Below, piece after piece: positions 1-4,893 of a DNA stretch of 4,893 nt (positions are counted from its first letter, which is position 1; each line of letters opens with the position of its first letter). The notes beneath the pieces were generated by a model that was given only the letters and a program-made list of their open reading frames with translations, did no database searches and had not been told where the DNA came from. Made by a program: the position numbers and the translations under genes. Location: IMG/VR virus record IMGVR_UViG_2660238190_000007, positions 1 to 4,893 of that record; one strand, given 5' to 3'. Source of the stretch: a virus (Duplodnaviria; Heunggongvirae; Uroviricota; Caudoviricetes).

Positions 1-546
1 ATGGAAGTCAACAAAAAGCAGCTGGCTGACATTTTCGGTGCGAGTATCCGTACCATTCAGAACTGGCAGGAACAGGGAATGCCCGTTCTGCGAGGCGGTG
101 GCAAGGGTAATGAGGTGCTTTATGATTCTGCCGCCGTCATAAAATGGTATGCCGAAAGGGATGCTGAAATTGAGAACGAAAAGCTGCGCCGGGAAGTTGA
201 AGAACTGCGGCAGGCCAGCGAGACAGATCTCCAGCCAGGGACTATTGAGTACGAACGCCATCGACTTACGCGTGCGCAGGCCGACGCACAGGAGCTGAAA
301 AATGCCAGAGACTCCGCTGAAGTGGTGGAAACCGCATTCTGTACTTTCGTGCTGTCGCGGATCGCAGGTGAAATTGCCAGTATTCTCGACGGGATCCCCC
401 TGTCGGTGCAGCGGCGTTTTCCGGAACTGGAAAACCGACATGTTGATTTCCTGAAACGGGATATCATCAAAGCCATGAACAAAGCAGCCGCGCTGGATGA
501 ACTGATACCGGGGTTGCTGAGTGAATATATCGAACAGTCAGGTTAA
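1..546 (+). CDS. nu1: Terminase small subunit (lambda gpNu1-like), apparently full length at 181 aa
   Basis: Complete ORF from ATG at 1 to TAA at 544-546. The translation (MEVNKKQLADIFGASIRTIQNWQEQGMPVLRGG...) matches lambda gpNu1 from memory along its whole length with only scattered substitutions. The N-terminal helix-turn-helix-like segment (QLADIFGASIRTIQNWQ) fits the cosB-binding domain. The 3' end overlaps the A start by 26 nt, as in lambda. Confidence 0.93.
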   Translation: MEVNKKQLADIFGASIRTIQNWQEQGMPVLRGGGKGNEVLYDSAAVIKWYAERDAEIENEKLRREVEELRQASETDLQPGTIEYERHRLTRAQADAQELKNARDSAEVVETAFCTFVLSRIAGEIASILDGIPLSVQRRFPELENRHVDFLKRDIIKAMNKAAALDELIPGLLSEYIEQSG

Positions 547-877
547 CAGGCTGCGGCATTTTGTCCGCGCCGGGCTTCGCTCACTGTTCAGGCCGGAGCC
601 ACAGACCGCCGTTGAATGGGCGGATGCCAATTACTATCTCCCGAAAGAATCCGCATACCAGGAAGGGCGCTGGGAAACACTGCCCTTTCAGCGGGCCATC
701 ATGAATGCGATGGGCAGCGACTACATCCGCGAGGTGAATGTGGTGAAGTCTGCCCGTGTTGGTTATTCCAAAATGCTGTTGGGTGTTTATGCCTACTTCA
801 TAGAGCATAAGCAGCGCAACACACTTATCTGGTTTTCTTTTGTGCGCTTGCAGGCCAGCTTGGGATCAGCCGCCTGA
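521..877 (+). pseudogene. A: Terminase large subunit (lambda gpA-like) N-terminal fragment: about 104 native codons followed by 14 out-of-frame codons and a stop
   Basis: Translation MNISNSQVNRLRHFVRAGLRSLFRPEPQTAVEW...EHKQRNTLIW matches the lambda gpA N-terminus from memory. After the W codon at 830-832 the reading continues as FSFVRLQASLGSAA and stops at TGA 875-877. The DNA beyond 832 is C-gene sequence read in the wrong frame. Lambda gpA is about 641 aa, so the ATPase and nuclease regions are missing. Confidence 0.85.
831..834. other. Deletion junction 1: A codon 104 joined to the interior of C (about lambda C codon 29) at a shared GGTT
   Basis: Left of the junction reads as lambda A (...ACACTTATCTGGTT). 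Right of it reads as lambda C (GGTTTTCTTTTGTGCGCTTGCAGGCCAGCTTGGGATCAG = ...VFFCALAGQLGIS). GGTT is common to both parental sequences as I recall them. The join is out of frame: A is in frame 2 and C in frame 1. Confidence 0.75.
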
Positions 878-981
878 CGGATGCAGTATCCGGCGACAGC
901 CTGACTGCCGGAGAGGCACCCGCGGCGCTGGCGTTATCCGGTGATGATGACGGACCACGACAGGCCCGCAGTTATCAGGTC

Positions 982-2067
982 ATGAACGGCATCGCCGTGC
1001 TGCCGGTGTCCGGTACGCTGGTCAGCCGGACGCGGGCGCTGCAGCCGTATTCGGGAATGACCGGTTACAACGGCATTATCGCCCGTCTGCAACAGGCTGC
1101 CAGCGATCCGATGGTGGACGGCATTCTGCTGGATATGGACACACCGGGCGGGATGGTGGCGGGAGCATTTGACTGTGCTGACATCATCGCCCGTGTGCGA
1201 GACATAAAACCGGTATGGGCGCTGGCCAACGACATGAACTGCAGTGCAGGTCAGCTGCTTGCCAGCGCCGCCTCCCGGCGTCTGGTCACGCAGACCGCCC
1301 GGACAGGCTCCATCGGCGTCATGATGGCTCACAGTAATTACGGTGCTGCGCTGGAGAAACAGGGCGTGGAAATCACGCTGATTTACAGCGGCAGCCATAA
1401 GGTGGATGGCAACCCCTACAGCCATCTACCGGATGAGGTCCGGGAAACACTGCAGTCCCGGATGGATGCAACCCGCCGGATGTTTGCACAGAAGGTGTCG
1501 GCATATACCGGCCTGTCCGTGCAGGCTGTGCTGGATACCGAGGCTGCAGTGTACAGCGGTCAGGAGGCCATTGATGCCGGACTGGCTGATGAACTTGTGA
1601 ACAGTACCGATGCGATCACCGTCATGCGTGATGCACTGGATGCACGTAAATCCCGTCTCTCAGGAGGGCGAATGACCAAAGAGACTCAATCAACAACTGT
1701 TTCAGCCACTGCTTCGCAGGCTGACGTTACTGGCGTGGTGCAAGCGACGGAGGGCGAGAACGCCAGCGCTGCGCAGCCGGACGTGAACGCGCAGATCACC
1801 GCAGCGGTTGCGGCAGAAAACAGTCGCATTATGGGGATCCTCAACTGTGAGGAGGCTCACGGACGCGAAGAACAGGCATGCGTGCTGGCCGAAACCCCCG
1901 GTATGACCGTGGAAACGGCCCGCCGTATTCTGGCCGCAGCACCACAGAGTGCACAGGCGCGCAGTGACACTGCGCTGGATCGTCTGATGCAGGGGGCACC
2001 GGCACCGCTGGCTGCAGGTAACCCGGCATCTGATGCCGTTAACGATTTGCTGAACACACCAGTGTAA
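982..2067 (+). CDS. C: Prohead protease / minor capsid protein C (lambda gpC-like, S49 peptidase family), N-terminally truncated; 361 aa from the first in-frame ATG
   Basis: The frame is open from 811 and C-homologous from 832 (lambda residue about 29), but has no ATG, GTG or TTG before 982 (about lambda Met79). Translation MNGIAVLPVSGTLVSRTRALQPYSGMTGYNGIIARLQQAASDPMVDGILLDMDTPGGMVAG... matches lambda gpC from memory. Stop is TAA at 2065-2067. The native start and about 28 N-terminal codons were lost to deletion junction 1. Confidence 0.8.
   Translation: MNGIAVLPVSGTLVSRTRALQPYSGMTGYNGIIARLQQAASDPMVDGILLDMDTPGGMVAGAFDCADIIARVRDIKPVWALANDMNCSAGQLLASAASRRLVTQTARTGSIGVMMAHSNYGAALEKQGVEITLIYSGSHKVDGNPYSHLPDEVRETLQSRMDATRRMFAQKVSAYTGLSVQAVLDTEAAVYSGQEAIDAGLADELVNSTDAITVMRDALDARKSRLSGGRMTKETQSTTVSATASQADVTGVVQATEGENASAAQPDVNAQITAAVAAENSRIMGILNCEEAHGREEQACVLAETPGMTVETARRILAAAPQSAQARSDTALDRLMQGAPAPLAAGNPASDAVNDLLNTPV
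1672..2067 (+). CDS. nu3: Scaffolding protein Nu3 (131 aa), translated from an internal in-frame start within C
   Basis: In-frame ATG at 1672 preceded by AGGAGG at 1662-1667. Translation MTKETQSTTVSATASQADVTG...NDLLNTPV matches lambda gpNu3 from memory. The nested C/Nu3 arrangement is the established lambda organisation. Confidence 0.75.
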   Translation: MTKETQSTTVSATASQADVTGVVQATEGENASAAQPDVNAQITAAVAAENSRIMGILNCEEAHGREEQACVLAETPGMTVETARRILAAAPQSAQARSDTALDRLMQGAPAPLAAGNPASDAVNDLLNTPV

Positions 2068-2076
2068 GGGATGTTT

Positions 2077-2409
2077 ATGACGAGCAAAGAAACCTTTACC
2101 CATTACCAGCCGCTGGGCAACAGTGACCCGGCTCATACCGCAACCGCGCCCGGCGGATTGAGTGCGAAAGCGCCTGCAATGACCCCGCTGATGCCGGACA
2201 CCTCCACCCGTAAGCTGGTTGCGTGGGATGGCACCACCGACGGTGCTGCCGTTGGCATTCTTGCGGTTGCTGCTGACCAGACCAGCACCACACTGACGTT
2301 CTACAAGTCCGGCACGTTCCGTTATGAGGATGTGCTCTGGCCGGAGGCTGCCAGCGACGAGACGAAAAAACGGACCGCGTTTGCCGGAACGGCAATCAGC
2401 ATCGTTTAA
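2077..2409 (+). CDS. D: Head decoration protein D (lambda gpD-like), 110 aa, apparently intact
   Basis: ATG at 2077 with AAGGG at 2066-2070 about 6 nt upstream. Translation [27 protein letters not shown]...[12 protein letters not shown] matches lambda gpD from memory with a few substitutions. Stop is TAA at 2407-2409. The upstream ATG at 2071 would add MF, but lambda gpD begins MTSKE. Confidence 0.93.
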
Positions 2410-2426
2410 CCTGACCCTTCATCACT

Positions 2427-2451
2427 AAAGGCCGCCTGTGCGGCTTTTTTT
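2427..2451 (+). terminator. GC-rich hairpin followed by a T-tract in the D-E intergenic region (intrinsic-terminator-like)
   Basis: AAAGGCCGC-CTGT-GCGGCTTT forms a stem GCCGC/GCGGC (2431-2435 with 2440-2444), extendable by flanking A-T and G-U pairs, followed by TTTTTTT at 2445-2451. A second T-run at 2458-2464 lies just before the E start codon. Confidence 0.5.
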
Positions 2452-2464
2452 ACGGGATTTTTTT

Positions 2465-4318
2465 ATGTCGATGTACACAACCGCCCAGCTGCTGGCGGCA
2501 AATGAGCAGAAATTTAAGTTTGATCCGCTGTTTCTGCGTCTCTTTTTCCGTGAGAGCTATCCCTTCACTACGGAGAAAGTCTATCTCTCACAAATTCCGG
2601 GACTGGTAAACATGGCGCTGTACGTTTCGCCGATTGTTTCCGGTGAGGTTATCCGTTCCCGTGGCGGCTCCACCTCTGAATTTACGCCGGGATATGTCAA
2701 ACCCAAGCATGAGGTGAATCCGCAGATGACCCTGCGTCGCCTGCCGGATGAAGATCCGCAGAATCTGGCGGACCCGGCTTACCGCCGCCGTCGCATCATC
2801 ATGCAGAACATGCGTGACGAAGAGCTGGCCATTGCTCAGGTCGAAGAGATGCAGGCAGTTTCTGCCGTGCTCAAGGGCAAATACACCATGACCGGTGAAG
2901 CCTTCGATCCGGTTGAGGTGGATACCGGAGCTTTGTGGAAGCGTACAGCCGTCGGATTAACGAATTTCGCCTGGATCAACACATCCGGCGATACATATGA
3001 TATTTACGTTGAGATTGGCAATTATGCGACGAGTGTAAATATCCATTGGGATTGTACTACAAATGCGTCAGTTTCTATTTATACCTCGCCAACATATTCA
3101 GCGAGTAAGCCTTCCAGCGTTACCGGTGGTGTTGTTTATACGATGTATAGCTCACATCAGAAACCTACACCATCAGATATTGGAGCGCTGCCAACGACTG
3201 GAGGGACTATTTCAGGTCCGTTGTCTGTTACTGATGGGATCACCGGGGCACTGAAGGGGAACGCCGATACCGCGACGAAACTTGCGGCAGCCCCAAAAAT
3301 TAACGGTGTTAAGTTTGATGGCTCGGCGGATATTAACCTCACGCCGGAAAATATTGGTGCATTTGCCCGACGTTCGACGGGGGCTTATGCGGATTCGGAT
3401 GGAGCCGTTCCCTGGAATGCCGAATCAGGCGCTTACAATGTCACCCGCTCTGGCAACAGCTATATTCTGGTTAACTTCTATACCGGAGTCGGAAGTTGCC
3501 GGACCTTGCAGATGAAGGCACATTACAGAAATGGAGGTCTGTTCTACCGTTCCTCAAGAGATGGCTATGGTTTTGAGGAAGACTGGGCAGAAGTTTATAC
3601 CTCGAAAAATCTTCCACCAGAAAGCTACCCAGTCGGCGCACCAATCCCGTGGCCATCAGATACCGTTCCGTCTGGTTATGCCCTGATGCAGGGGCAGACT
3701 TTTGACAAATCTGCTTACCCGAAACTTGCAGCCGCTTATCCGTCAGGTGTGATCCCTGATATGCGTGGCTGGACGATTAAGGGCAAACCTGCCAGTGGTC
3801 GGGCCGTATTGTCTCAGGAACAGGACGGCATTAAATCGCACACCCACAGCGCCAGCGTATCCAGTACGGATTTGGGGACGAAAAACACATCGTCGTTTGA
3901 TTACGGAACCAAATCCACGAATAACACCGGGGCGCATACCCATAGTATTAGCGGGACTGCAAATAGTGCCGGTGCGCACCAACACAAGAGTTCCGGTGCA
4001 TTTGGTGGCACGAACACGAGCATTTTCCCTAATGGTTATACCGCGATTTCAAATCTAAGCGCGGGGATTATGAGCACAACAAGCGGTAGTGGCCAGACTC
4101 GTAATGCAGGGAAGACATCATCAGATGGTGCTCATACCCACTCGCTGTCCGGCACTGCTGCAAGCGCAGGCGCACACGCACATACTGTCGGTATTGGTGC
4201 TCATACGCACTCCGTTGCGATTGGTTCACATGGACATACCATCACCGTTAACGCTGCTGGTAACGCGGAAAACACCGTCAAAAACATCGCATTTAACTAT
4301 ATTGTGAGGCTTGCGTAA
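2465..4318 (+). CDS. Chimeric ORF of 617 aa: N-terminal 153 aa of major capsid protein E fused in frame to a 464-aa side tail fibre C-terminal region (Stf-like)
   Basis: ATG at 2465 gives [34 protein letters not shown]...[14 protein letters not shown], which matches lambda gpE residues 1-153 from memory. From 2925 the sequence no longer resembles E and encodes a tail-fibre repeat ([39 protein letters not shown]) and a C-terminus resembling lambda Stf ([69 protein letters not shown]...[31 protein letters not shown]). Stop is TAA at 4316-4318. The upstream ATG at 2438 lies inside the terminator hairpin and is rejected as the start. Confidence 0.85.
2924..2925. other. Deletion junction 2: E codon 153 joined in frame to the tail-fibre interior
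   Basis: The sequence follows lambda E through ...GTTGAGGTGGATA (to 2924). Lambda would continue TGGGCCGCAGTGAGG (MGRSEENN...), but the window continues CCGGAGCTTTGTGGAAG (TGALWKR...). The reading frame is preserved across the join. Confidence 0.75.
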
Positions 4319-4893
4319 TGGCATTCAGAATGAGTGAACAACCACGGACCATAAAAATTTATAATCTGCTGGCCGGAACTAATGAATTTATTGGTGAAGG
4401 TGACGCATATATTCCGCCTCATACAGGTCTGCCAGCAAACAGTACCGATATTGCACCGCCAGATATTCCGGCAGGCTTCGTGGCTGTTTTCAACAGTGAT
4501 GAGGCATCGTGGCATCTCGTTGAAGATCATCGGGGTAAAACGGTTTATGACGTGGCTTCCGGCGACGCGTTATTTATTTCTGAACTCGGTCCGTTACCGG
4601 AAAATGTTACCTGGTTATCGCCGGGAGGGGAATATCAGAAGTGGAACGGCACAGCCTGGGTGAAGGATACGGAAGCAGAAAAACTGTTCCGGATCCGGGA
4701 GGCGGAAGAAACAAAAAACAGCCTGATGCAGATAGCCAGTGAGCATATAGCGCCGCTTCAGGATGCTGTGGATCTGGAGATCGCAACGGAGGAAGAAACC
4801 TTGTTGCTGGAAGCCTGGAAAAAGTATCGGGTGTTGCTGAACCGTGTTGATACATCAACTGCACCGGATATTGAATGGCCAGCACTGCCGTAG
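4318..4893 (+). CDS. tfa: Tail fibre assembly chaperone Tfa (lambda gpTfa-like), 191 aa
   Basis: ATG at 4318 overlaps the stf stop as TAATG (4316-4320). Translation [79 protein letters not shown]... matches lambda Tfa from memory. Stop is TAG at 4891-4893. The last few codons differ from my recollection of lambda Tfa, which I think is slightly longer. Confidence 0.92.

Follow-up and report, generated by a model that had tools for sequence, protein, structure and literature searches.

The 4,893-nt stretch analyzed here (positions 1 to 4,893 of the IMG/VR record IMGVR_UViG_2660238190_000007, hereafter the window) carries undamaged genes of a tailed phage side by side with fragments of others, and the question it raises is whether such a locus is a prophage in decay or a set of genes kept for a use. 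Judged from its sequence and from that of its relatives, the window most probably (with a probability of roughly 0.93) corresponds to the eroded late-gene, or morphogenesis, region of a lambda-type Escherichia coli prophage, and thus to a defective remnant; the process is ordinary, recent prophage decay of an already known kind, and no new system is involved.

Regarding its relation to phage lambda (NC_001416), the window has the genes of the late operon (nu1-A-W-B-C/nu3-D-E ... stf-tfa) in the same order and orientation, and BLASTN aligned it collinearly in four blocks with identities from 86.7 to 98.4%, mostly 94-98%: window 1-834 with lambda 191-1024 (98.4%), 831-2924 with 4501-6594 (97.6%), 3635-3913 with 21245-21523 (86.7%), and 4181-4883 with 21836-22538 (94.3%). 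The identity of all the ORFs was confirmed by Pfam (Phage_Nu1, a GpA_ATPase fragment, Peptidase_S49, HDPD, Phage_cap_E together with Collar, and Caudo_TAP). Four of them, nu1, nu3, D and tfa, are open and full length; A breaks off after codon 104, neither W nor B is present, C is devoid of its first 28 codons, and E stops after codon 153, while FI through lom and stf codons 1-588 are also absent from the window. Compared with lambda, about 17.5 of 22.4 kb are gone (lambda 1025-4500, and 6595 to mid-stf), and two deletions took ~80% of the genes needed for a virus particle. Since gpA, gpB, full-length gpE and the tail genes are established as essential in lambda, the locus would be unable to assemble capsids or tails or to package DNA. 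The initial annotation had listed nu1, about 104 A codons, C starting near codon 29 with Nu3, D, 153 codons of E, the distal part of stf, and tfa as the surviving pieces, an inventory that proved exact to the codon, and the alignment it called for disclosed collinearity with two clean deletion junctions; its reading of a defective lambdoid prophage remnant is supported, and the tests it proposed all favored it.

As for the head genes, all on the + strand like the rest of the locus, nu1 (1..546, nohA/nohD type) encodes an intact terminase small subunit of 181 aa, with 98.7% nucleotide identity and two amino acid differences with respect to lambda nu1, and it covers the whole Phage_Nu1 profile (E 3.9e-101). 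It is followed by a fragment of the terminase large subunit gene, A' (521..877), in which 104 lambda A codons (521-832, lambda 711-1024) continue after the junction overlap into an out-of-frame tail that stops at 877; only positions 3-63 of the 247 in GpA_ATPase are matched. The head maturation protease/scaffold gene, C' (832..2067), is out of frame with A' and has its first in-frame ATG at 982; it has 96.8% nucleotide identity with lambda 4502-5737, no internal stop, and a Peptidase_S49 match with E 2.8e-44. Nested in the C frame, the nu3 scaffold ORF (1462..2067) is intact and open, and it corresponds to lambda 5132-5737 with 97.7% nucleotide identity and six amino acid differences. The head decoration gene D (2077..2409) is intact as well (110 aa, 98.8% nucleotide identity to lambda D, HDPD with E 2.8e-20), and E' (2465..2923) retains the first 153 of the 341 codons of the major capsid protein gene, with 98.7% nucleotide identity to lambda 6135-6593, no amino acid difference, and a match to positions 1-147 of the 329 in Phage_cap_E. 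In one of the complete genomes identical to the window over 1-4882 (L001), the PGAP annotation treats A', C', E' and stf' as pseudogenes.

The distal part of the side tail fiber gene, stf' (2924..4318, 464 codons), has a composite origin: window 2923-3978 is 98.6% identical to the gene encoding a 1035-aa Stf in the lambdoid prophages L010/L012, which occupy the Qin site, and enters it at codon 589, while the segments 3635-3913 and 4181 onward match lambda orf-314. BLASTN found no DNA match between window 2925-3634 and lambda stf; as this segment matches the Qin-site Stf instead, the ancestor was a lambda relative with a mosaic tail fiber and not lambda itself. Its middle thus sets the tail fiber gene apart from that of lambda, and Pfam assigns to stf' a Collar domain (E 3.7e-12) with weak Phage_fiber and gp37_C matches. 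E' and stf' are read in frame as one ORF of 617 aa, or of 626 aa from the GTG at 2438; the 626-aa GTG-start form is on record, and an exact-sequence look-up of the 617-aa ATG-start form gave no match. This chimera is most likely an accident, and an annotation of the 626-aa ORF should describe a capsid/tail-fiber fusion pseudogene and not a new protein family. The last gene, tfa (4318..4893), encodes an intact tail fiber assembly protein of 191 aa that ends in ...WPALP (Caudo_TAP, E 2.4e-43); it differs from lambda Tfa (194 aa) at the C-terminus, where it corresponds to the TfaQ allele. The 3' end of the window is of the TfaQ type, GGCCAGCACTGCCGTAG, and its last 11 bases are unlike those of the IAL and BS74R-D genomes.

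Turning to the junctions, the first (831-834) joins A codon 104 to C codon 29 over a 4-bp GGTT microhomology that is present at both parental sites, lambda 1021-1024 and 4501-4504, with C resuming at lambda 4502; the second (2923..2924) joins E codon 153 to Stf codon 589 in frame over a 2-bp TA microhomology, where the lambda E and L012 stf alignments overlap by two bases. Microhomologies of 2-4 bp at both junctions are as expected for illegitimate recombination, of the slippage or end-joining type. The late operon of a lambda-family E. coli prophage was most probably eroded by successive spontaneous deletions: one of ~15 kb fused E codon 153 to stf codon 589, and with it went FI, FII, Z-U-V-G-T-H-M-L-K-I-J and lom, together with the remainder of E and the proximal part of stf, and a second event fused A codon 104 to C codon 29, with the loss of most of A, W and the portal gene B, most probably in a genome that was already without lambda 1760-3882.

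This probable order of events comes from relatives at other stages of decay; the initial annotation had suggested comparing the locus with that of related strains, and fuller versions were indeed found. On either side of junction 1, the draft genomes L013/L014 match the window at 100%, and they have junction 2 in common with it; they contain 1347 bp more, from lambda 1025-1759 and 3883-4500, with an A'/B' deletion of their own, and they retain 350 A codons, part of the portal gene and an untruncated C. In L012, H-M-L-K-I-J-lom and a complete stf still precede a tfa allele identical to that of the window. At the other end, the prophage of the sister genome BS74R-D is the same except that 700 bp more are gone (window 508-1207), a loss that engulfs junction 1, removes the 3' end of nu1 and creates a Nu1'::C' fusion ORF of 452 aa. 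Shared flanks and differing losses form a nested series, from the L013 type to the window/IAL type and then to BS74R-D. The case is one of clean, datable erosion of a prophage in steps, represented by three nested states of deletion with identical flanking sequence.

Over 4415 bp, the window and L013 differ by no substitution, and the absence of change with respect to a less decayed relative points to a very recent decay for which selection is not needed. The genes nu1, nu3, D and tfa, as well as the fragments, would remain because they lie outside the deleted intervals and there was too little time for point mutations, so that retention for function is probably not required to explain the surviving ORFs, and the remnant would be evolving neutrally. 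Of the two options offered in the initial annotation, very recent decay is therefore the one that stood, given the lack of substitutions, the rarity of the alleles and the cut in nu1 of BS74R-D, while selective retention is disfavored. That prophages degenerate through deletion, and that those of the Qin and DLP12 types vary in size, has been documented (PMC6379469).

The alternative that survives best is the domestication of the module, namely that the host keeps Nu1, Nu3/D and E'::Stf'-Tfa for some use, either as a fiber-like surface or exclusion protein, or as a tail fiber tip and chaperone kept in store until superinfecting lambdoid phages rescue them by recombination. It would account for the four intact ORFs and the in-frame fusion, and for the fact that the Qin locus also keeps its edges, with a full-length 181-aa Nu1 within ~560 bp of tfaQ in seven of the 10 loci shown; moreover, the exact 191-aa TfaQ protein occurs in 7111 blocks of the collection, typically with pinQ as its neighbor at the Qin locus. 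However, a junction is expected to be in frame one third of the time, and in the nested series two of the four are in frame and two are not; with no substitution since the last deletion, there was no time for selection to become visible, the alleles are rare, and nu1 is already truncated in BS74R-D. The dN/dS values with respect to lambda (0.0-0.25, and ~1 for D on only four differences) are not evidence of retention either, because these differences predate the deletions and reflect the earlier history of the phage. Finally, the module could be expressed only with the late promoter and Q at work, but the early region driving Q is deleted in L001. Domestication is consequently very unlikely, and it is just as improbable that E(1-153)::Stf(589-end) and Tfa are expressed and used, as a trimeric receptor-binding stub that blocks or competes with incoming phages or as a ready-made host-range cassette acquired through recombination by superinfecting lambdoid phages; if they were, the fact that nu1 and tfa repeatedly persist on the margins of lambdoid late regions that have collapsed would be a matter of selection and not of geometry. 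The in-frame E'::Stf' and the four intact ORFs are, per se, compatible with a retained use, yet they are no evidence for it.

Regarding the chromosomal context, it is deduced from the relatives identical over window 1-4882 and not from the genome of the window itself. In these complete genomes, the block is part of a 19.95-kb prophage that occupies the lambda attachment site, flanked by ybhC on one side and by ybhB-bioA on the other. The L001 prophage has int, xis and both att cores (at 8311 and 28246), and an exact cosN, with the cosB sequence, 189 bp upstream of nu1, so that the relatives resemble lambda in both the upstream cos and the site of integration; exo-to-P is missing, lambda 31323 being joined to 40348. 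The flanks had been proposed in the initial annotation as the place where the missing genes might reappear: W, B, the E C-terminus and the tail genes are not adjacent in these relatives, and no portal, tail or full capsid gene was found next to the block in the 19.95-kb prophage.

The presence of cosN/cosB near an intact nu1, along with int, xis and both att cores, is what a satellite-like element of the cos type (cos-type PICI) might display, with a helper phage supplying capsids and tails and with nu1 and cos kept for packaging. Nevertheless, every piece is a lambda gene cut short, with 97-98% identity, and none is satellite-specific, PGAP calls the fragments pseudogenes, and the 19.95-kb element has no replication module, primase or satellite regulator, the ori having been deleted within exo-to-P; as a monomer, a 20-kb element would also be far below the packaging range of lambda. 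This explanation is exceedingly unlikely, and the assignment to phage satellites was rejected on the lack of autonomous replication, of a satellite-specific regulator and of capsid-redirecting genes in the 19.95-kb element.

As for the distribution of the junctions, window 1-4882 occurs at 100% identity in four complete Brazilian E. coli genomes, and a 100-bp probe spanning junction 2 has a full match in only five of 5426 complete genomes; in all, junction 2 is carried by five complete genomes and two drafts, the carriers outside the Brazilian set being one Swiss genome and the two drafts. Junction 1 is also found on the independent contigs L015-L017 and L020-L026, and both junctions occur together in Logan contigs from ~20 independent runs; an exact-pattern scan of the species-representative genome collection found neither. 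A mis-join of collapsed prophage repeats, suggested by lambdoid genes being repeated in E. coli (median of four matching places per genome), by repeats breaking short-read assemblies and by contigs L013-L026 ending inside repeats, has almost no probability and was rejected, because identical junctions, both on microhomologies and collinear with lambda, recur in four chromosome-level genomes, one complete genome, two drafts and ~20 unrelated Logan runs.

The decaying prophage can also be compared with the cryptic prophages of E. coli K-12, which have the arrangements nohA-stfQ'-tfaQ in Qin and nohD-aaaD'-tfaD' in DLP12. Like the window, both have a collapsed morphogenesis region between a Nu1 homologue and a tail fiber assembly gene; the TfaQ protein of Qin is exactly identical to that of the window, and window 1-513 and 4127-4893 have counterparts of 98-99.8% identity in the Qin-type loci L003-L011. 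A resolvase-family (pin-type) gene lies ~100 bp downstream of tfaQ in 10 of the 10 loci shown. In contrast, decay is less advanced in the window, which still has A', C'/nu3, D, E' and 1.4 kb of stf, and the complete-genome carriers have the block at the lambda attachment site and not at the Qin or DLP12 sites. The genes upstream of the block vary: L013, which shares junction 2, has Qin-type genes there, with lysis and cold-shock genes and the set cspB/F/I, gnsB, ydfO and ynfO, and in the IAL and BS74R-D genomes the block, at the lambda attachment site, follows genes of the DLP12 type. The same block behind both types of genes means that recombination between lambdoid prophages also contributed to its history. 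The importance of the locus is slight beyond bookkeeping, and it might serve as a small case study of the deletion mechanism (2-8 bp junction overlaps) and of how lambdoid prophages that share a host swap blocks of their late regions.

Finally, a scan of the window for repeats gave nothing beyond chance, and the promoter-like and terminator-like sites it contains, five and three, compare with 3.7 and 4.7 expected by chance, respectively. The Rfam family RF02111 (IS009) matches the + strand at 4661-4859 with 221.5 bits, over a gathering threshold of 117; the match falls wholly within the tfa coding sequence, so that it says nothing on a separate RNA gene and should be annotated as part of tfa.

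The window is what remains of a lambdoid prophage that decayed recently and in an ordinary way. BLASTN against phage lambda (NC_001416), together with pairwise alignments, returned four blocks collinear with lambda: window 1-834 (lambda 191-1024, 98.4% identity), 831-2924 (lambda 4501-6594, 97.6%), 3635-3913 (lambda 21245-21523, 86.7%) and 4181-4883 (lambda 21836-22538, 94.3%). On this alignment, 104 complete codons of A, C from codon 29 and exactly 153 codons of E are retained, as the initial annotation had counted them. Window 2925-3634 had no DNA match in lambda stf; from these alignments, the ancestor was a lambda relative carrying a mosaic fibre gene.

Regarding the gene content, defined by ORF listing and Pfam scans of the window, the genes lie on the plus strand; minus-strand ORFs were unsupported as genes, being shadows of those on the plus strand. 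nu1 (1-546) matches the whole Phage_Nu1 profile, and A', the terminase large-subunit fragment (521-877), covers positions 3-63 of the 247 of GpA_ATPase; C' (832-2067) is an S49 protease reading frame found by ORF listing and Pfam, followed by D (2077-2409, HDPD). The full-length open frames are nu1, nu3 (1462-2067), D and tfa (4318-4893, Caudo_TAP), the first three with 2, 6 and 3 residue differences from lambda, respectively. Between D and E, a G+C-rich hairpin followed by a T run (2427-2451, GCCGC-CTGT-GCGGC-TTTTTTT) was read by eye and is absent from the terminator scan list; it lies inside the block 831-2924, 97.6% identical to lambda.

Junction 1, the joint between A' and C', falls on GGTT (831-834), present at lambda 1021-1024 and also at 4501-4504; past it, A' enters C out of frame and stops at 877. 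Junction 2, between E' and stf', falls on TA (2923-2924); its E side was taken from the lambda alignment and its stf side from L012, a lambdoid prophage locus with a fuller late region, where 8657-9712 of the 1035-aa stf gene corresponds to window 2923-3978 at 98.6%. Codon phase is equal on both sides of junction 2, so that the frame of E codons 1-153 carries on through Stf from codon 589. The resulting ORF (2465-4318, plus strand) has 617 aa, or 626 aa from an upstream GTG at 2438, and matches Phage_cap_E 1-147 of 329 at its start and Collar, with weak Phage_fiber and gp37_C, at its end; it thus presents a capsid N-terminus, followed by the Collar domain of a fibre and a tip rich in His. Gene callers give it as a single 626-aa protein from the GTG, which might wrongly be taken for a novel domain architecture. 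Illegitimate recombination leaves short microhomologies at joints, and from the short microhomologies seen here both junctions would have formed in this way.

As for the deletion history, less decayed alleles occur in two draft-genome contigs (L013 and L014), 100% identical to the window on either side of junction 1 and having junction 2 in common; they hold 1347 bases more, join lambda 1-1759 to 3883-6594, and retain 350 A codons, a portal fragment and full-length C. BS74R-D, from Switzerland, carries a prophage of the type found in the Brazilian IAL genomes that also lacks window 508-1207 (700 bp; the two alignments overlap by 8 bp), and this deletion fuses nu1 to C in frame in a 452-aa ORF (14001-15359 of its locus), labeled by PGAP as terminase small subunit. 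In many strains the Qin locus (L003-L011) is reduced to nu1 1-513, the last 190 bp of stf and tfaQ; in L012 the genes H to J, lom and an entire stf still precede this tfa. Stepwise erosion, with every new deletion engulfing an earlier junction, is the simplest reading; that prophages degenerate by deletion and that Qin prophages vary widely in size is documented (PMC6379469). The last step is very recent, given that L013 and the window show 0 substitutions in 4415 aligned bases.

The shared late block lies behind Qin-type cold-shock and lysis genes in L013 and behind DLP12-type lysis genes in the IAL genomes, which indicates that late-region blocks have been exchanged between lambdoid prophages. 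Identity begins abruptly ∼550 bp upstream of nu1 (19450 in the IAL7255 locus, 5662 in L013), and this point is the recombination boundary of two lambdoid backbones with one decayed late block in common.

The initial annotation had proposed either very recent decay or selective retention of the intact genes; the first is favoured, while no evidence for the second was found in the junction frames, dN/dS, allele rarity or BS74R-D nu1. Of the four junctions in the deletion series, two keep the reading frame where chance predicts one in three, which is unremarkable; dN/dS relative to lambda records the phage stage that preceded the deletions; the junction alleles are rare, and nu1 is already truncated in BS74R-D. 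An assembly artefact is ruled out because the junctions recur in complete genomes, drafts and independent runs: window 1-4882 is found at 100% in four chromosome-level Brazilian genomes (IAL7250, 7252, 7254 and 7255), a 100-bp probe of junction 2 matched fully in 5 of 5426 complete genomes (these four and BS74R-D), the exact 626-aa product occurs in L013 and L014, and the junction-1 ORF with the 361-aa C' product was on short contigs from ∼20 independent sequencing runs, some covering both junctions.

The flanks were read in IAL7255, identical over 1-4882, where ybhC and ybhB-bioA enclose a 19.95-kb element that contains the block and ends in lambda att cores (8311 and 28246). The element has int and xis, 99% identical to lambda, and an exact cosN-cosB 189 bp upstream of nu1; its nin/Q/lysis region is of DLP12 type and includes a porin gene and iss/bor. 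A third large deletion, beyond the window, brought lambda 31323 (orf60a) next to 40348 (ren) at 11916-11923 and took away all of the recombination, immunity and replication genes (exo, bet, gam, N, cI, cro, O and P). Downstream of tfa lie AT-rich DNA, IS1, an AraC-family regulator and IS fragments; W, B, the E 3' half and tail genes do not adjoin the block, and in the PGAP annotation of this genome A', C', E' and stf' are already pseudogenes. With the collinear blocks and the two junctions, this sustains the initial view of a defective lambdoid remnant. The porin gene between quuD and essD (15890-16987), iss/bor (18762-19055) and the regulator by IS1 (26505-27248) are cargo that may explain the persistence of the whole element.

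Finally, the fibre tip (3840-4260) carries repeated His-x-His boxes (GAHTHS, GAHQHK, GAHAHT, GAHTHS, GSHGHT). The differences from lambda orf-314 are a 30-bp and a 27-bp deletion and a divergent stretch at ∼3914-4180, and that from L012 is a 51-bp length difference at 3979-4126; such differences are mosaic variation of the receptor-binding end. The Tfa C-terminus is unlike that of lambda (...WPALP, 191 aa vs 194 aa), and the last 11 bases (4883-4893) are those of the TfaQ allele; the IAL genomes and BS74R-D, otherwise identical, have another, longer 3' end (24883-24899 in IAL7255, tfa annotated as 193 aa), which suggests either that recombination broke at the extreme tfa end or that the window has another host locus. 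Neither this difference nor the block exchange changes the verdict. An Rfam IS009 match (RF02111; 4661-4859, plus strand; 221.5 bits against a gathering score of 117) lies entirely within the tfa coding sequence, and what the family represents is probably conserved tfa sequence of prophage pseudogene regions, not a separate RNA gene.
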